DNA from: a virus
Taxonomy: Duplodnaviria > Heunggongvirae > Uroviricota > Caudoviricetes
Direction: 5' to 3' (one strand)
Length of the DNA: 64,000 nt
Virus record (IMG/VR): IMGVR_UViG_3300042894_003937
Shown in pieces: positions 18,303-59,920 of this stretch (positions are counted from its first letter, which is position 1; each line of letters begins with the position of its first letter). Made by a program: the position numbers and the translations under genes. The notes beneath the pieces are model-generated. The model saw only the letters and a list, made by a program, of their open reading frames with translations, did no database searches and had not been told where the DNA came from.

Positions 18303-18432
18303 AATTTTTAGTTGATCCTATTCGTGTTTGTAAGGTTGTCCCAAAACCTTTTTCGTGGTCATTACATTTATTTGCGATTGTGGATAACTTTTCGCATTAT
18401 TTAGAATATATATAGAAAGAAAATAGTTGACG

Positions 18433-18624
18433 ATGTTTGAAAGAGCGAAGAAAGGTTTTAAACCACCTAAACCAAAAAAGCAAAGGATAAACTTCTTTAT
18501 GAACAAAGAGGTGTATGACCAGTTTGAGTTGTACTGTGATGCGAACCAATATAAGAGAAACGAATTGATTGAATGTATCTTAGAAGAGTTTCTGAATAAG
18601 TATGGAACAGATAAAAAAAGGTAG
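18433..18624 (+). CDS. ribbon-helix-helix (CopG/Arc-like) DNA-binding protein
   Basis: KKQRINFFMNKEVYDQFELYCDANQYKRNELIECILEEFL: beta-strand/helix/helix pattern typical of RHH; ORF track begins at TTG 18427, ATG at 18433. Confidence 0.55.
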   Translation: MFERAKKGFKPPKPKKQRINFFMNKEVYDQFELYCDANQYKRNELIECILEEFLNKYGTDKKR

Positions 18625-18625
18625 A

Positions 18626-18751
18626 ATGAAAGATATGTTACCAGTGGGTTCATTTTATGTTACCTATGAAGATGTTAGACCATATTGGAGACCTGTTATA
18701 CTAGCGAGAAAGTATAAGATTAAAAGGATTCTGTCATGGCGATTCCTTTAG
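18626..18751 (+). CDS. tiny basic peptide, Fam-D (..WRPVILARKYKIKRILSWRFL), 41 aa
   Basis: Translated by hand; below the ORF-track cut-off; shares the RKxKIKRI core with seven other tiny ORFs. Confidence 0.35.
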   Translation: MKDMLPVGSFYVTYEDVRPYWRPVILARKYKIKRILSWRFL

Positions 18752-18762
18752 TCCCATATGGT

Positions 18763-18864
18763 ATGAGTTATGCTGATTGGGCTAAACGGGTTCATAGACC
18801 GACGAATTTAAAGTGGATAAGAAAGAACTCACGAATGAGAAAGATTAAAAGGATATATGAATAA
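18763..18864 (+). CDS. tiny basic peptide, Fam-D (MSYADWAKRVHRPTNLKWIRKNSRMRKIKRIYE), 33 aa
   Basis: Hand translation; RMRKIKRIYE core. Confidence 0.35.
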   Translation: MSYADWAKRVHRPTNLKWIRKNSRMRKIKRIYE

Positions 18865-18868
18865 TGAT

Positions 18869-18905
18869 AAAACCCACTTAATAGTGGGTTTATCTGTTAT
18901 TATTT
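18869..18905. terminator. hairpin terminator aaaacccact-taat-agtgggttt plus T-rich tail; identical copy at 21755-21790
   Basis: 9-10 bp GC-containing stem, 4-nt loop, followed by atctgttattattt. Confidence 0.55.
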
Positions 18906-20169: not shown

Positions 20170-20264
20170 TTTCATTATAAAATAGGTTGGAGTCTACTCT
20201 TCTGATCTTATCAACCCGTCATCCAATACAAAGATAAGAAGATTATATGGTTCTACCAAGTAAA

Positions 20265-20334: not shown

Positions 20335-20457
20335 ATGGGTTGGGTAAATAAGAATGTTTGGATAGATGAACCAGAGGATGATGGGATAAGTCATTTCAAG
20401 TTTTTGAGAAGGATTAGAAGGAAAACAAAGATAAAAAGGTTATTTGTCTGTATTTAA
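20335..20457 (+). CDS. tiny basic peptide, Fam-D (..HFKFLRRIRRKTKIKRLFVCI), 40 aa
   Basis: Hand translation; RRKTKIKRLF core. Confidence 0.35.
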   Translation: MGWVNKNVWIDEPEDDGISHFKFLRRIRRKTKIKRLFVCI

Positions 20458-20764
20458 AGGAAAGTGTATTGTGGAGAAAGGTGATATAGTGCAAAGCACT
20501 CTCTGCGTGGGTGGAGTATTAGTTTGTAGGAAGACTTATTGTAGATATGTTTTATATAATCGTAGTTGGTCGAGAAATATAAGTGGTAAGAGTTATATTA
20601 TAATGGCGATAAAGGAAAGTGTAAATGTTTATGTTTCTAATGAAGAGGGAGGTTCTATGTTATTTTCTTTATATGATGATGGTAAGTTACCATATTTAGG
20701 GGATTATTTTATTTCGTTGGTGGATTTTCGTGAGGAAAAATTAGAACAAATTATAGGTAAATGA
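20444..20764 (+). CDS. small protein with C-terminal tail motif (..DFREEKLEQIIGK); start may be the internal ATG at 20603
   Basis: 106-aa ORF; stop overlaps the purN start (ATGA). Confidence 0.45.
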   Translation: MSVFKGKCIVEKGDIVQSTLCVGGVLVCRKTYCRYVLYNRSWSRNISGKSYIIMAIKESVNVYVSNEEGGSMLFSLYDDGKLPYLGDYFISLVDFREEKLEQIIGK

Positions 20765-55254: not shown

Positions 55255-56358
55255 ATGAATAAATTAGATAAACAATACACAGACTTGCTACTAGACATTT
55301 TACATAATGGTCAAGCAAAAGGTGATAGAACCGGTACAGGAACAATCTCAGTATTCGGTAGACAGATCAGACATGATATGAAGGATGGTTTTCCTTTACT
55401 AACAACCAAAAAGATGCCATTCAAAACAATCGTAACAGAATTGTTATGGTTTTTAAATGGTGATACTAATATAAAGTATCTAGTTGATAATGGTTGTAAC
55501 ATTTGGAATGGTGATGCTTATAAAAACTATGTCACAAAATTCAAAGAGTATTGGAGTGGAAAAGGATATGATGTACCTACAATGGAAACCTTCGTCGATA
55601 GAATTAAGAATCAACAAGGATTTTCTGAAGAGAATGGTCAGCTAGGTCCAATTTACGGAGCTCAGTGGAGATCTTGGAGAGTTGGTAAGGGAATTGAAAC
55701 TACATTAAAAACTGAAGATGGTGAATCTATATATGAGGCAGGTTCAATGTATATTGACCAAATTGCAAACCTAATCAAAGATTTAAAAACAAATCCAGAT
55801 TCTAGACGATTGATGGTTTCTGCTTGGAATGTGGGAGAATTGGAGAATATGGTTTTACCACCTTGTCATTATGGATTTCAAGTTTATACCAGAGAGTTAG
55901 ATGCAGAGACTAGATATAACATCTGGTTTAATAACAATTATGAAACAGGTATGGAAAGATTCTTTGATCCTAACAAACTACCTGATTATGATAATACATA
56001 TTATATACCGACACCTACCAGAGCAATCTCACTTATGTGGAATCAACGTTCAGTAGATACATTCTTAGGATTGCCATTTAATATAGCTTCTTATGCTCTT
56101 TTATTAGAGATTATTGCAAGAGAAGTGAATATGGTGCCGGATCAATTGATTGGAAATTTAGGTGATGTTCATTTATATTCTAATCATATTGAACAAGCTA
56201 AGGAACAGATTGCGAGAAAAGGATTGGATTTACCTAGTATAATTATAAATAAAGTTATGAAGAAAGCAGATGATTCATTACCTTTATACAATATAACTGA
56301 CTTTAAATTAAATGATTATAAGTCACACGAAACAATTAAAGCAAAATTAAGTAATTAA
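55255..56358 (+). CDS. thyA: thymidylate synthase (ThyA-type, with insertions)
   Basis: DRTGTGT, catalytic LPPCH, WNQRSVDTFLGLPFNIASYALLLEIIA and GD.HLYSNH are collinear with ThyA; 367 aa, so about 80-100 aa of inserts. Confidence 0.92.
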   Translation: MNKLDKQYTDLLLDILHNGQAKGDRTGTGTISVFGRQIRHDMKDGFPLLTTKKMPFKTIVTELLWFLNGDTNIKYLVDNGCNIWNGDAYKNYVTKFKEYWSGKGYDVPTMETFVDRIKNQQGFSEENGQLGPIYGAQWRSWRVGKGIETTLKTEDGESIYEAGSMYIDQIANLIKDLKTNPDSRRLMVSAWNVGELENMVLPPCHYGFQVYTRELDAETRYNIWFNNNYETGMERFFDPNKLPDYDNTYYIPTPTRAISLMWNQRSVDTFLGLPFNIASYALLLEIIAREVNMVPDQLIGNLGDVHLYSNHIEQAKEQIARKGLDLPSIIINKVMKKADDSLPLYNITDFKLNDYKSHETIKAKLSN

Positions 56359-56361
56359 GAT

Positions 56362-56901
56362 ATGGCAAACATTATGACAACTTATGTTAAGGTAGGTAAC
56401 CTTAATGAAGAAACCCACAAAAGATTTGTGGATCTATTTGAAGATACAGAGGATTTACTATCACACTTCAATAAAATATATTCTACTGAATTTTCAGACT
56501 ATGATGAATTAGATAGAGATTGGATGGTAGAAAACATTGGATCTAAATGGATATCTATAGAATGTGACGACGATTTATCTTATAATGATAGTATGGATTT
56601 AGTTTTAGAAACAGCTTGGTCAGTACCAACTGAATACCTTCAAAAGGTGGTTGAATTTATTGGTGATGATGTTGTTGTATATGGAACTTATGAGGATGAA
56701 TCTTATGATCCAATCGGTGCATTCGTATATGCAGTTGATTATGATGATATTGAGGATTATGAAGAGGTTGAATTAGAGCGTATTCATGAAGATGATGATT
56801 ATATGGAATCGATGTATGATGAATTATACCAACTTCGTGATTCTTTATATGAATCATATCTTGAAGTAATTTATGAGAGAGCAAACGAAGAACAAATATG
56901 A
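56362..56901 (+). CDS. highly acidic hypothetical protein
   Basis: 179 aa, D/E-rich. Confidence 0.5.
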   Translation: MANIMTTYVKVGNLNEETHKRFVDLFEDTEDLLSHFNKIYSTEFSDYDELDRDWMVENIGSKWISIECDDDLSYNDSMDLVLETAWSVPTEYLQKVVEFIGDDVVVYGTYEDESYDPIGAFVYAVDYDDIEDYEEVELERIHEDDDYMESMYDELYQLRDSLYESYLEVIYERANEEQI

Positions 56902-57401
56902 AAAGAATACTAACAACACTTTTACTAATAGTTTCAATAGTATGTACCGCTCAAACACCAGTAACTCTCGTATTTGACAATGGTATGACTGTGGTAAATG
57001 GATTTGTAGATGATGGTGTTCAGATTATTCTACCACCGAAATATAACTTCTTTATGTATGGTGAGAGAAACATTATGGGTATTGAACAGTTTGATTCGAT
57101 TGAACAATATAGATTAGTTGAGAAGGAGTTTCGGTATATGTATCAAGCTAGATTATATGGAGATACAGAAGTATCGATAGAGATTCAAGATCATCCAATG
57201 TTTGAATATTGTACTGTGATTTACTTCTTTTATGAGTCTGGCATGTCTACTAATGGTATAACAAATATGTGGACTTCGATGGGTAATGGGGATCATCATA
57301 TTATTATAACGACTTATGAAGGTATTTACTATAAAGCTTTTATAAGAATAAAAGATGGATGTTTGGTAGAACAAAGAGAGTTACCGATATATCATGAGTA
57401 A
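56898..57401 (+). CDS. secreted hypothetical protein (signal peptide)
   Basis: MKRILTTLLLIVSIVCTAQ. Confidence 0.5.
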   Translation: MKRILTTLLLIVSIVCTAQTPVTLVFDNGMTVVNGFVDDGVQIILPPKYNFFMYGERNIMGIEQFDSIEQYRLVEKEFRYMYQARLYGDTEVSIEIQDHPMFEYCTVIYFFYESGMSTNGITNMWTSMGNGDHHIIITTYEGIYYKAFIRIKDGCLVEQRELPIYHE

Positions 57402-57546
57402 TTATATTTGTAGTGTTGATTTAGTAACTGATAATCCAACGGTTATTATTACGTCAACACCTTATGGAAGTAATTGGTCAAGTTTTATAGGCTTCCATTT
57501 CAAATTAAGACGTATAGAAAAGATTAGACGAATTTTCAATGGGTAA
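57394..57546 (+). CDS. tiny basic peptide, Fam-D (..FHFKLRRIEKIRRIFNG), 50 aa
   Basis: Hand translation; overlaps neighbours by ATGA-type junctions. Confidence 0.3.
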   Translation: MSNYICSVDLVTDNPTVIITSTPYGSNWSSFIGFHFKLRRIEKIRRIFNG

Positions 57547-57643
57547 AAATAAATGGAGAAATATATTTCGAGCTAGATTAAGAAAGCATAAAATTAGAAG
57601 GATATTCTCTATGGGAATACCTGAATACTGGCAAAATATTTAA
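57539..57643 (+). CDS. tiny basic peptide, Fam-D (MGKNKWRNIFRARLRKHKIRRIFSMGIPEYWQNI), 34 aa
   Basis: Hand translation; its nucleotides aaggatattctctatgggaatacc are homologous to 18726-18750. Confidence 0.3.
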   Translation: MGKNKWRNIFRARLRKHKIRRIFSMGIPEYWQNI

Positions 57644-57648
57644 AAGAA

Positions 57649-57759
57649 ATGTATCAAAAAACATCAGGAAAATGGAATCCAATTACTAGACATAGTATAT
57701 TACGATCAAATGTAAGAAAGATTAAGATAATGAATATCTTTATGAATATAAAAAAATAA
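57649..57759 (+). CDS. tiny basic peptide, Fam-D (..ILRSNVRKIKIMNIFMNIKK), 36 aa
   Basis: Hand translation. Confidence 0.3.
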   Translation: MYQKTSGKWNPITRHSILRSNVRKIKIMNIFMNIKK

Positions 57760-57766
57760 AAAATAA

Positions 57767-58195
57767 ATGAAAAAGGAAATACAATTAAGATCAATACTAG
57801 ATGATGAAGGTCATTTAGCTAGTCCACAATTACCATCTGATATTAAAAATTATCTAATAGATATTGATGGTACTATTACAGATGATGTACCTAATGAAGA
57901 GCATGAACGTATGTCAGTAGTTATACCTTACTCTGATTCTGTAGAAACATTAAATAGATGGTATGATGAAGGACATGTTATCACATTCTTTACTTCTAGA
58001 ACAGAAGAGCATAGAGACATAACTGAGGCTTGGTTAAACAAGTGGGGTTATAAGTATCATGGATTACTAATGAATAAACCAAGAGGTGGTAACTATCATT
58101 GGGTAGATAATCATATTGTAAAGGGAACTAGATACGAGGGTGTTTGGAGTGATCTTGTTAGAGAAGAAAGAACGATAGAAGTTTTCCCATCATAA
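57767..58195 (+). CDS. HAD-superfamily hydrolase-like protein (motif I LIDIDGTITDD)
   Basis: 142 aa; DxDGT near the N-terminus; FFTSRTEEHRD motif-II-like. Confidence 0.5.
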   Translation: MKKEIQLRSILDDEGHLASPQLPSDIKNYLIDIDGTITDDVPNEEHERMSVVIPYSDSVETLNRWYDEGHVITFFTSRTEEHRDITEAWLNKWGYKYHGLLMNKPRGGNYHWVDNHIVKGTRYEGVWSDLVREERTIEVFPS

Positions 58196-59019: not shown

Positions 59020-59171
59020 GTAACCCGGCAAGACAAATTCGTAAGAGATTTAGTGATGAAGTAATCAGTAAGTTATTAGAATTGAAATGGTGGGATAAAA
59101 CTGAGTCTGAGATAAATGATATATCTGATATTCTTTGCTCTGATGATATACAAAAATTAAATAAATTATAA
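59016..59171 (+). CDS. small hypothetical protein (51 aa, MSNPARQIRKRFSDEVISKLLELKWWDK..)
   Basis: Hand translation; ATGA and TAATG junctions with both neighbours. Confidence 0.35.
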   Translation: MSNPARQIRKRFSDEVISKLLELKWWDKTESEINDISDILCSDDIQKLNKL

Positions 59172-59752
59172 TGAAAAGAACAGATATTATAAATAAACTT
59201 GTTGTAAAATATAACTACAAATCATATTTAGAGGTTGGTACTCAAGATCCATCATCTAACTTTGATCTAATAAATATAGAACATAAGGTTTCTATTGACC
59301 CATTTCCTAGAGGTGCAGTTACTTTTGTTGGAACATCTGATGAATATTTTGATTCAATTACTAAGGATGTAAAGTATGATATTATTTTTATTGATGGTTT
59401 ACATCATTCAGAACAAGTATTAAAAGATATTGAAAATTCATTAAATCATTTATCTGATAATGGAACAATTGTTTGTCATGATTGTTTACCAACAACTGAA
59501 AAGATGCAATATAGAGAAGATCACGGTGAAGAATGGACTGGTGATGTTTGGAAAGCAATTGCCGAATTAAGAGTTGTACGAACTGATTTAGATATAAAGG
59601 TAGTAGATAGTGATTATGGTTGTGGTATAATTAGAAGAGGTACTAATATACCATATCAAACATCTGAGGATTATAAAACATATTCTCACTTTTCATTAAA
59701 TAGAAATCATTTAATGAATGTTATCTCAACCAATGATTTATTAAAAATATGA
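59171..59752 (+). CDS. class I SAM-dependent methyltransferase-like protein (TylF/CmcI-like fold)
   Basis: LEVGTQDPSS.., DIIFIDGLH, DNGTIVCHD. Confidence 0.5.
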   Translation: MKRTDIINKLVVKYNYKSYLEVGTQDPSSNFDLINIEHKVSIDPFPRGAVTFVGTSDEYFDSITKDVKYDIIFIDGLHHSEQVLKDIENSLNHLSDNGTIVCHDCLPTTEKMQYREDHGEEWTGDVWKAIAELRVVRTDLDIKVVDSDYGCGIIRRGTNIPYQTSEDYKTYSHFSLNRNHLMNVISTNDLLKI

Positions 59753-59874
59753 TAAAATTTGATTTAGACTTAGGACAGAAAGATTGGACTGAAAAAGATT
59801 GGATAGAACTTGATTCACGTATGAGAGCTATCCGAAGAATGATGAAGATAAAAGATATATTTGAACATGACTGA
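59749..59874 (+). CDS. tiny peptide, Fam-D (..WIELDSRMRAIRRMMKIKDIFEHD), 41 aa
   Basis: Hand translation; SRMR.I.R core as in 18763..18864. Confidence 0.35.
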   Translation: MIKFDLDLGQKDWTEKDWIELDSRMRAIRRMMKIKDIFEHD

Positions 59875-59888
59875 TTAAAATTTAATAG

Positions 59889-59920
59889 AAGATTCTAAAT
59901 TTTTAGAGTCTTTTTTTTAT
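59889..59920 (+). terminator. hairpin agattctaaa-ttt-ttagagtct plus T8
   Basis: Stem with one G:U, then tttttttt. Confidence 0.5.

Follow-up and report, generated by a model that had tools for sequence, protein, structure and literature searches.

Three tandem small open reading frames as probable micro-genes of an orphan family in a phage genome

In T4-type and other large phages, small early open reading frames (ORFs) are arranged in arrays within hyperplastic regions. The locus described here lies in a 64-kb window, the whole stretch of phage DNA that was analysed, whose small genes recall these arrays: they are tightly packed and overlapping on the same strand, they lie between conserved enzymes (thyA, HAD-like, methyltransferases), and their presence or absence differs between relatives. 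Unlike the T4-type arrays, which are made up of unrelated ORFans, neighbouring small genes are here paralogues of one another, and no promoter or stem-loop boundaries of cassettes were found around the units. The peptides of this family, Fam-D, can also be set beside the lambda N protein, in which an arginine-rich N-terminal helix binds RNA and a Trp stacks on the boxB loop. Fam-D peptides are likewise small phage proteins with a placed Trp and, as predicted for one member, a short Arg/Lys-rich helix. However, there is no sequence relationship, the Fam-D Trp is N-terminal to the basic stretch, the 59749 subfamily does not keep the charge, and no cognate conserved RNA hairpin was found here by Rfam or by covariation. 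MinD and FtsA, in turn, carry C-terminal membrane-targeting helices (…KGFLKRLFGG), whose K-[IL]-K-R-[IL]-F-G look seems to recur at the C-termini of the 20335-type members (…KIKRLFGYG and KIKRIFGIG). Those helices are appended to large ATPases, whereas the Fam-D helix makes up most of the protein, and its hydrophobic moment does not rise above that of shuffled sequences in a test that was also insensitive for the MinD peptide.

Small proteins of phages (<100 aa) comprise many uncharacterised families, as reviewed in 'Phage Small Proteins Play Large Roles in Phage-Bacterial Interactions' (PMC11323111), and small proteins have been surveyed in the GMSC catalogue (PMC11364881). Like the surveyed phage families, Fam-D is tiny, often uncalled, lineage-restricted, located in accessory regions and recognised by conservation only. 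It differs from them in its copy number, at least 7 within 64 kb with three arranged in tandem, in the in-frame shuffling between copies, and in the lack of any PHROG, Pfam or NCBIfam match. Because orphan small-protein families are common in phages, we regard the finding as solid but not surprising. Its contribution is a micro-protein family, conserved and multi-copy, in a lineage of large, AT-rich, uncultivated phages. These are probably jumbo phages of an SD-independent host such as Bacteroidota; this identification is drawn solely from the likeness of thyA to that of a Flavobacterium phage, from PHROG matches and from the missing SD sequences.

Arrangement and neighbourhood of the trio

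The original prediction placed three small ORFs of 50, 34 and 36 aa between the genes at 56898..57401 and 57767..58195, and this is where they were found:

Upstream gene, 56898..57401, + strand: 167 aa, signal-peptide-like N-terminus; not always the neighbour of the trio
Overlap of upstream gene and ORF1, 57394..57401, + strand: ATGAGTAA, 8 nt, ORF1 starting within the last codons of the 167-aa gene
ORF1, 57394..57546, + strand: 50 aa, MSNYICSVDLVTDNPTVIITSTPYGSNWSSFIGFHFKLRRIEKIRRIFNG; ATG start; conserved N-terminal head, Trp28 and predicted C-terminal helix; motif codons at 57508-57537
Overlap of ORF1 stop and ORF2 start, 57539..57546, + strand: ATGGGTAA, 8 nt, of the form ATGnnTAA
ORF2, 57539..57643, + strand: 34 aa, MGKNKWRNIFRARLRKHKIRRIFSMGIPEYWQNI; ATG start; net charge +9
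ORF2 motif RKHKIRRIF, 57581-57607, + strand
ORF3, 57649..57759, + strand: 36 aa, MYQKTSGKWNPITRHSILRSNVRKIKIMNIFMNIKK; ATG start; diverged paralogue (K-I-M-N-I-F); motif at 57715-57741; tail past NIFMNI unconstrained
Downstream HAD-like phosphatase-type gene, 57767..58195, + strand: 142 aa; matches phrog_1238, phrog_415 and, weakly, PF24694

The first ORF does overlap the stop of the upstream gene. The ATGA-type overlaps described within the trio, on the other hand, are 8-nt ATGnnTAA overlaps at the first two junctions, and there is no overlap between ORF2 and ORF3, which are 5 nt apart (57644-57648). The distance from the ORF3 stop to the next ATG is 7 nt (57760-57766) instead of 8. Similarly, the core R-K-x-K-I-[KR]-R-I-F ascribed to all three ORFs is exact in ORF2 only, the corresponding stretches being RRIEKIRRIF in ORF1 and RKIKIMNIF in ORF3.

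The trio fills 96.8% of the 373-nt gap on a single strand. Dinucleotide-preserving shuffles (n = 5000) covered 7% of it on average and 87% at most, with 0/5000 reaching 90%, and three ORFs of at least 30 aa occurred in 0.08%. The minus strand of the gap holds no ATG ORF of that length (>=30 aa).

At least 14 related contigs, the largest of 378 kb, carry the trio in front of the same HAD-like gene (synteny set L027-L038 and L042-L047), and this gene, with a pN/pS of 0.12, is the constant partner of the trio within the lineage. Relatives of the HAD-like gene in 26 IMG/VR loci, all of other lineages, are not accompanied by the trio. The 167-aa gene has no Pfam or PHROG match, no IMG/VR relatives were found for it or for ORF1, and a comparison of the gap with GenBank phages gave no match; thyA is the only part of the window that matches these phages (82%, Flavobacterium phage). 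The 8-nt overlap of upstream gene and ORF1 is present wherever the 167-aa gene adjoins (L028, L030, L036, L042-L045), and the ATGnnTAA of ORF1 and ORF2 is kept in all relatives, with varying middle bases (GG, AG, GT, CA). The junction of ORF3 with the HAD-like gene varies between overlap, abutment and a gap of 7 or 15 nt, and in L027, L029, L034 and L036 stop and start form an ATGA overlap.

A position always directly upstream of the HAD-like gene, with overlaps at the first two junctions and, in these last contigs, at the third, would suit cis-acting leader ORFs, in which translation rather than the product tunes the HAD-like gene through coupling or through pausing on the basic C-termini. 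We consider this improbable: the third junction is not conserved, relatives manage with two ORFs or one fused ORF, and the amino-acid sequence is conserved across paralogues. Moreover, no conserved alternative RNA structure emerged from Rfam or from covariation, and two family members elsewhere in the window, 18736..18864 and 59749..59874, are the last genes ahead of terminator-like hairpins, with no downstream gene to regulate.

Conservation of the reading frames

Comparison of the related sequences shows that the ORFs are conserved, that purifying selection acts on them in their own frames, and that relatives differ through gain, loss and in-frame recombination of the tandem copies. Conservation in homologous regions had been proposed as a check, and the same three frames are open in related contigs, every copy in at least 14 of them. 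Frame-breaking indels in orthologous regions, named beforehand as the observation that would speak against coding, were looked for, and none was found inside the ORF bodies: the indels there (30, 18, 15, 12 and 3 nt) are all multiples of three. Indels of 1 nt are limited to the spacer between ORF2 and ORF3 and to the A-run after the ORF3 motif, and the ORF3 tail frameshifts freely. For each ORF, pN/pS is lowest in its own frame, with 0.27 against 0.98 and 1.68 in the shifted frames for ORF1, 0.51 against 0.84 and 0.68 for ORF2, and 0.49 against 1.11 and 1.52 for ORF3. Substitutions within the motif are synonymous or exchange K with R and I, V and M with each other. Judged by frame retention, indels in multiples of three and frame-specific pN/pS together, the coding signal is clear for ORF1, moderate for ORF3 and weak for ORF2, whose selection signal is the weakest of the three, with a pN/pS near those of its shifted frames, and in which some close pairs exceed a pN/pS of 1 on very few substitutions.

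ORF1 is intact in L027-L034 and L045-L046, and its database orthologues P0031, P0035, P0048 and P0051 are 80-86% identical; its middle part occurs among the relatives in two mosaic versions. An intact ORF2 is present in 12 distinct sequences, among them the divergent version of L042, MKSRWRFRMRAWRRKQKVGRLFQLKWIKIN, in which the frame is still open at a pS of 0.66. It is almost never called by gene callers, and the sole database protein that contains it is an ORF1::ORF2 fusion (P0052). ORF3 has the orthologues P0002, P0003, P0041 and P0053, carries in-frame deletions of 15 and 18 nt in L030 and L029, and is cleanly missing from L028, L044 and L046. The number of copies at the locus is 3, 2 or one in-frame fusion, as in L035, where ORFs are fused in frame; because it varies from 1 to 3, no single copy of the trio is indispensable.

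Could the trio simply be evolutionary debris, that is, an easily duplicating unit of DNA whose frames are open through recent common ancestry rather than selection and whose peptides are inert? The differences in copy number between close relatives would be expected of such a unit, as would the mosaic middle of ORF1, pN/pS values of only about 0.5 on few substitutions in ORF2 and ORF3, the free frameshifting of the ORF3 tail and the confinement of the family to one lineage. Yet at 30% GC open frames decay fast, as the average gap cover of 7% in shuffled sequences illustrates, and here all copies are open throughout the contigs, even ORF2 of L042 with its high pS, with internal indels always in frame and pN/pS always lowest in the ORF's own frame. 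In addition, deep paralogues at four loci share the Trp and the K-I..[IL]-F core in different codons. We therefore hold debris to be an unlikely explanation.

That the triplicated micro-genes are translated had been argued from their triplication. Triplication alone is no evidence of translation, and the coding reading is supported instead by the intact relatives, the indels, pN/pS and the codon variation. We put the probability that the trio represents genuine coding micro-genes of one family at roughly 80-85%. The fuller statement, that these are three paralogous coding micro-genes of an orphan family, with the functional proposal below flagged as a guess, is somewhat better than an even bet. 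Standard annotation omits such genes, as is seen in the uncalled gap here and in the almost uncalled ORF2 of the related contigs, and the locus may serve as a worked example of how a real gene of 34-50 codons can be told from a chance ORF through paralogues, in-frame indels and frame-specific pN/pS.

The family in the window and in sequence databases

In addition to the trio, the 64-kb window contains four members of the family, at least seven in total:

18602..18751, + strand: 49 aa, …RPYWRPVILARKYKIKRILSWRFL; P0049 is identical
18736..18864, + strand: 42 aa, …YADWAKRVHRPTNLKWIRKNSRMRKIKRIYE; last gene ahead of a terminator-like hairpin at 18872-18893
20335..20457, + strand: 40 aa, MGWVNKNVWIDEPEDDGISHFKFLRRIRRKTKIKRLFVCI; richest in database orthologues
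59749..59874, + strand: 41 aa, MIKFDLDLGQKDWTEKDWIELDSRMRAIRRMMKIKDIFEHD; 4-nt ATGA overlap with the methyltransferase gene 59171..59752

A hairpin with a T-run directly follows 59749..59874. Each member has a variable N-terminal head and a conserved Trp, and its C-terminal stretch closes with K-I-x-x-[IL]-F; across the family the core reads R-x-x-K-I-x-x-[IL]-[FYL], near the C-terminus, and the single conserved Trp lies 14-25 residues upstream at a variable spacing. The C-terminal stretch, Arg/Lys-rich in most members, is predicted to form a single alpha-helix of about 20 residues. AF2 modelled the 20335 member as a disordered head followed by a helix at residues 18-39 (pLDDT 83-88), and ORF1 as a helix at residues 27-49 with low confidence (mean pLDDT 57). 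Annotation by fold was rejected, the AF2 models being either a lone helix or of low confidence. Net charge varies from +9 in ORF2 and ORF3 to between -1 and -5 in the 59749 subfamily.

A word-indexed search of 5.8e9 metagenome proteins returned 48 matches at E<1e-3, all of 34-79 aa, in which each paralogue of the window has its own orthologues: P0032, P0034, P0036, P0037 and P0043 for 18736..18864, and P0006, P0013, P0022 and P0026, with the distant P0064 and P0065, for 59749..59874. Among 1.84e9 representatives, searched exhaustively with HMMER, there were 15 matches of 35-64 aa and no longer protein, and the database profile search returned orthologues of ORF1 and ORF3 as well as the ORF1::ORF2 fusion. 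A local HMM of 6 members scored the trio at E values of 5e-11 to 2e-10, these sequences being part of the model, and the untrained 59749 member at 1.7e-4. The trio itself shows the family's length range (34-79 aa), Trp and core, ORF3 departing at two motif positions (M-N for [KR]-R). Searches with the trio in Pfam-A, PHROGs v4, NCBIfam 20, PADLOC 2.0 and PDB sequences gave no match at E<=0.01, and the best match of a PDB profile search had E=1.4. Other members had chance-level matches only (Bromodomain, scoring below its cut-off, at 0.012; PPR, in 2/41 members, at 0.0055). By the Pfam, PHROG, NCBIfam, PADLOC and PDB searches, the trio belongs to a new orphan family that has multiplied in one phage lineage. 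Guesses of an RHH or zinc-ribbon protein for 18427..18624 and for a 62-aa insert in L042 were dropped for want of Pfam support.

The codons of the conserved residues differ among paralogues (K as AAG or AAA; I as ATT, ATA or ATC; R as AGA, AGG, CGA or CGT; F as TTC or TTT). This bears on the view that a nucleotide motif, approximately AGAAAGnnTAARATTARAAGGAT, is what is conserved, as a ribosome-binding site, operator, promoter or small structured RNA in which the ORFs are incidental. The motif is SD-like and purine-rich, every copy is followed by an ATG or TTG within 3-20 nt, the pattern is enriched relative to shuffles, a weak copy at 20231 has no start codon in its frame, and the gap folds somewhat better than shuffled sequences (z = -2.8). 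However, changes in the motif are synonymous or conservative; distant members (KVQRIFG, KIERLF, KITNIF) differ in bases and keep the hydrophobic pattern; the upstream Trp is conserved at a variable distance; and indels respect the frame. SD-like sequences precede 3/84 genes of the window against a background of 6%, and the leaders are A-rich. Because the window genes lack SD sequences, the motif-internal AAGGA is not a ribosome-binding site, and that reading of AAGGA was also set aside on the grounds that the motif varies as codons do. A structured RNA was likewise rejected: Rfam gave no match, and the hairpin predicted at the 5' end of ORF1 (z = -2.8) is without covariation support, with a covariation term of +1.18 and several pairs broken. 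We regard the nucleotide-motif reading as very improbable and already largely refuted.

An even more remote explanation is that the peptides are RiPP-like precursors, in which K-I-K-R-I-F(-G) would serve for recognition or cleavage and the variable tail would become the product. Tandem multi-copy genes and variable short tails after ...RIFG (IGYGLKGESEGID, YGK, MKQLFIGIR, SMGIPEYWQNI) recall such systems. Yet no family of modifying enzymes, proteases or transporters was found among the neighbours in the window and 20 related loci, and the tails are frameshifted without constraint. Many members also lack a core peptide, because only 1-2 residues (E, NG, NE) follow the motif.

Translation and possible roles of the peptides

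The genes would sit mid-operon on the + strand. The starts of ORF1 and ORF2 fall within the last codons of the preceding gene, without an SD sequence to recruit ribosomes, and therefore coupling is their most likely mode of translation: ribosomes may terminate and reinitiate at the ATGnnTAA starts. We give translation by coupling an even chance. The leader of ORF3 appears to be A-rich, as for other genes of the window. Sigma-70 and terminator scans were uninformative. A promoter of the Bacteroidota type (-33 TTTG, -7 TAnnTTTG) was considered and rejected, the -7 element not being enriched (104 observed vs 101 expected) and none being tellingly placed.

As to function, we can offer a guess, which is possible but far from probable: the shared C-terminal helix might be a common module that docks either to RNA or DNA, as a polyanionic target, or to an acidic surface of the host, and the variable heads might diversify the effect, so that the peptides, as products of the accessory, early-type gene regions, would act in trans in host takeover or anti-defence. 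Against this guess, the charge is not conserved, no structural or sequence relative was found, and the helix is not significantly amphipathic by a hydrophobic-moment test of low power. In this test the best 18-residue windows of ORF1-3 were compared with 2000 shuffles (fractions 0.28, 0.11 and 0.26, respectively); because the MinD control peptide also fails, it has little power. If the peptides do act as effectors in trans, the relatives with one, two or three copies and the in-frame hybrids would form a natural, ready set for structure-function work.

A more specific version, which we find doubtful, would make Fam-D a set of modular, fast-evolving effectors, in which a conserved docking helix is joined to interchangeable heads and diversified by duplication, loss and in-frame recombination. 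Such a phage-encoded arms-race toolkit, as opposed to inert ORFans, could for example consist of decoys or inhibitors, directed at a defence system of the host or at the translation apparatus that works without SD sequences. This version cites the ORF1::ORF2 fusion, the two versions of the ORF1 middle, and the family proteins P0038 and P0056, each of which carries the motif twice. It also cites a 30-nt double-hairpin mobile element that inserts in frame into Fam-D micro-genes.

Three micro-ORFs upstream of the HAD-like gene

Between the 167-aa gene (56898..57401) and the 142-aa HAD-like gene (57767..58195), the three small ORFs of 50, 34 and 36 aa claimed by the original prediction are indeed present:

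57394..57546, + strand: ORF1, 50 aa, ATG-initiated
57539..57643, + strand: ORF2, 34 aa, ATG-initiated
57649..57759, + strand: ORF3, 36 aa, ATG-initiated

Together they cover 96.8% of a 373-nt interval. When this interval was shuffled 5000 times with dinucleotides preserved, ATG ORFs of 30 aa or more covered 7% on average and 87% at most, and three of them arose in 0.08% of the shuffles; the opposite strand of the actual sequence has no such ORF. In a window of 30% GC, such cover of the gap by three ORFs is well beyond chance. The ORFs had been described as chained by ATGA-type overlaps, the first of them overlapping the upstream stop. Overlaps do exist at the upstream-gene/ORF1 and ORF1/ORF2 junctions, but each is of 8 nt (ATGAGTAA and ATGGGTAA, respectively) rather than ATGA, and ORF2 and ORF3 stand 5 nt apart. 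Seven nucleotides, not 8, lie between the ORF3 stop and the next ATG. The core R-K-x-K-I-[KR]-R-I-F, said to occur in all three, is exact only in ORF2 (RKHKIRRIF); ORF1 has RRIEKIRRIF and ORF3 RKIKIMNIF. The observation is real, with its details corrected.

Ribosomes terminating on the preceding gene may well re-initiate at the overlapping ATG and so translate ORF1 and ORF2, while ORF3 would be initiated on its A-rich leader. Across the 84 long ORFs of the window, start-codon leaders are A-rich and G-poor, with no Shine-Dalgarno (SD) enrichment; in 85% of genes an A directly follows the ATG, and the stop codons are TAA (56), TGA (20) and TAG (8). Leaders of this kind fit the SD-independent initiation of Bacteroidota. 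At the nucleotide level (ALTERNATIVES), the motif could be taken for an RBS or operator, since it is purine-rich with AAGGA a few bases 5' of the next start codon; however, SD-like tetramers precede only 3 of the 84 long genes, the background rate, and the RBS reading was rejected. The gap folds somewhat better than its shuffles (z = -2.8), and the 5' half of ORF1 (57394-57480, + strand) can fold into a long, imperfect hairpin through an inverted repeat at 57413-57427 / 57446-57460. This hairpin is kept in relatives mostly via sequence identity, without covariation; its covariation term is positive and several pairs are broken, so that a conserved RNA was rejected as well. Rfam returned no match, promoter and terminator scans were uninformative, and it is very improbable that the nucleotide motif itself is the conserved element.

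Conservation and copy number in relatives

The contigs encoding homologues were fetched as L027-L047, the largest being 378 kb. As the original prediction proposed, reading-frame conservation was checked: the indels within the ORF bodies (30, 18, 15, 12, 3 and 3 nt) are all multiples of three. One-nucleotide indels are confined to the ORF2/ORF3 spacer and to the A-run after the ORF3 motif, where they alter just the last few residues of ORF3. The ORF1/ORF2 overlap ATGnnTAA is retained, with two variable middle bases, and motif substitutions are either synonymous or K/R and I/V/M exchanges. Nei-Gojobori counts, pooled across every pair of distinct sequences, gave the lowest pN/pS in the proposed frame for each ORF.

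pN/pS in the proposed and two shifted frames (HAD-like gene as baseline)
ORF1: proposed 0.27; shifted +1, 0.98; shifted +2, 1.68
ORF2: proposed 0.51; shifted +1, 0.84; shifted +2, 0.68
ORF3: proposed 0.49; shifted +1, 1.11; shifted +2, 1.52
HAD-like gene: proposed 0.12; shifted +1, 1.79; shifted +2, 1.97

Constraint on the three ORFs is weaker than on the HAD-like enzyme, and for ORF2 it is marginal; that they are functionless debris of duplication is unlikely. The relatives' frames, indels and pN/pS support the earlier reading of tandem micro-genes that are probably translated, and sequence comparison shows ORF1-3 to be conserved coding micro-genes, three members of a single expanded orphan family sitting mid-operon.

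The same HAD-like gene lies directly downstream of the trio in all fetched contigs, and the neighbour on the other side varies (the 167-aa gene, a 179/183-aa gene or thyA itself). The HAD-like gene also has relatives in other lineages, on 26 IMG/VR contigs, and none of these carries the trio. That the ORFs are leaders acting in cis on the HAD-like gene is judged quite improbable. Three ORFs are found in the window, L027, L029, L030, L031, L034, L036, L045 and also L042; in L028, L044 and L046 ORF3 is cleanly gone, and L035 carries a single in-frame ORF1::ORF2 fusion. The middle segment of ORF1 occurs in two alternatives, …SNWSSFISFHFKLRR… and …NVWITTMRCLDR…, both keeping the Trp and the motif. 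ORF2 of the divergent relative L042 (MKSRWRFRMRAWRRKQKVGRLFQLKWIKIN; pS 0.66 versus the window) retains the Trp, the Arg-rich stretch and K-V-x-R-L-F. In this contig, an unrelated 62-aa gene (933-1121; MKSPLTGKEMKLMSEPSTLEYRGKEYEVIHRFYLCEV…) without a Pfam match stands between ORF1 and ORF2.

An orphan family of small peptides

When the window was translated in six frames and scanned with the motif and an HMM, four further members of the family, termed Fam-D, emerged, every one on the + strand:

18602..18751, + strand: 49 aa, overlapping the 18736 member in tandem
18736..18864, + strand: 42 aa, last ORF before a terminator-like hairpin (18872-18893)
20335..20457, + strand: 40 aa
59749..59874, + strand: 41 aa, last ORF before a terminator-like hairpin (about 59886-59918)

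A variable N-terminal part leads to one invariant Trp; after a linker that differs in length comes R-x-x-K-I-x-x-[IL]-[FYL], near the C-terminus. The Trp-to-motif distance is not constant. Conserved residues use different synonymous codons between copies (K AAG/AAA; I ATT/ATA/ATC; R AGA/AGG/CGA/CGT; F TTC/TTT), which places the conservation at the protein level. A further frame at 20186-20260 (+ strand; …NTKIRRLYGSTK, then a stop) has the family core (KIRRLY at 20231) but no ATG, GTG or TTG after the preceding stop and an HMM E-value of 0.46; decay of a former copy, or chance, may account for it.

A profile of the seven window members, searched against 5.8 billion proteins, matched 48 at E<1e-3, each of 34-79 aa and unnamed or 'hypothetical', which fall into orthologue groups of single window paralogues: P0031, P0035, P0048 and P0051 for ORF1 (80-86% identity), and P0002, P0003, P0041 and P0053 for ORF3. 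For ORF2 the sole match is P0052, in which an ORF1 head is fused in frame to an ORF2 body. Run exhaustively on 1.84 billion cluster representatives, HMMER yielded only 15 proteins at E<=1e-3, all of 35-64 aa, and no larger protein containing the module. Neither Pfam, PHROGs, NCBIfam, PADLOC nor PDB sequences matched the family, the gap had no match among GenBank phages, and ORF1 had none in IMG/VR. The family is new to curated libraries, yet it is one more orphan family of phage small proteins.

AlphaFold2, given the family alignment, modelled the 20335 member as one helix (residues 18-39, pLDDT 83-88) behind a disordered head; the low-confidence ORF1 model has a helix at 27-49 beginning at the Trp. 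Net charge is +3 for ORF1, +9 for ORF2 and ORF3, and -1 to -5 in the 59749 subfamily, so what is conserved universally is not charge but the Trp together with the hydrophobic K-I..[IL]-F pattern. The helical hydrophobic moment did not exceed shuffled controls in a test of little power. The peptides resemble arginine-rich helices of the lambda N type, and also the membrane-targeting string at the MinD C-terminus (…KRLFGG); we take both likenesses as leads only, and tests for membership confirmed neither. Our guess, with a probability of roughly 0.25-0.3, is that the C-terminal helix would be a shared docking module, for polyanionic RNA or DNA or for a host surface, with variable heads diversifying its activity, and that the family would act in trans as host-takeover or anti-defence peptides. 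RiPP precursors seem scarcely credible.

Genome setting and a palindromic element

The window encodes thyA, folD-like, purN-like, methyltransferase, HNH endonuclease and LRR genes and many small ORFs, with no tRNA genes; its closest DNA match is the thyA of Flavobacterium phage vB_FspM_immuto (82%). It is most economically, if not conclusively, read as a large uncultivated phage with a Bacteroidota-like host. The thymidylate synthase (55255..56358, + strand; 367 aa) is spanned at residues 6-366 by a Pfam profile of 266 positions, and the excess of about 100 residues is therefore present as insertions; the L029 version has 276 aa.

In L039 (3575-5410; also L040 and L041), the counterpart of window 18.4-18.9 kb has grown into an unbroken row of ten tiny genes of 39-124 aa, several with looser motifs (KVQRIFGL, AIRRIFGI, RIKSIFGL) and one with two motifs. 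Relatives thus carry a bigger and more varied set of family members than the window does. A double-hairpin element of roughly 30 nt, tAGTGC-nnn-GCACT CTCTGYR-nnn-YRCAGAG-Ta, occurs in both orientations:

window 20488-20518, + strand: degenerate copy inside a TTG-ORF (20444..20764)
L039 3148 (+), 3230 (-), 3975 (-) and 4061 (-): same copies in L040 and L041

Its second stem shows compensatory variants (CTCTGTG/CAGAG, CTTTGCG/GCAAAG, CTCTGCA/GCAGAG). Its appearance suggests a miniature mobile palindrome whose insertions leave reading frames unbroken, and it is reminiscent of the Rickettsia palindromic elements. Two of the L039 copies lie in frame within Fam-D micro-genes, adding SADAESALHY and FAYAKSASHY, and in P0017, P0046 and P0055 the opposite orientation is read as SAKHSLRRQS, at differing positions.
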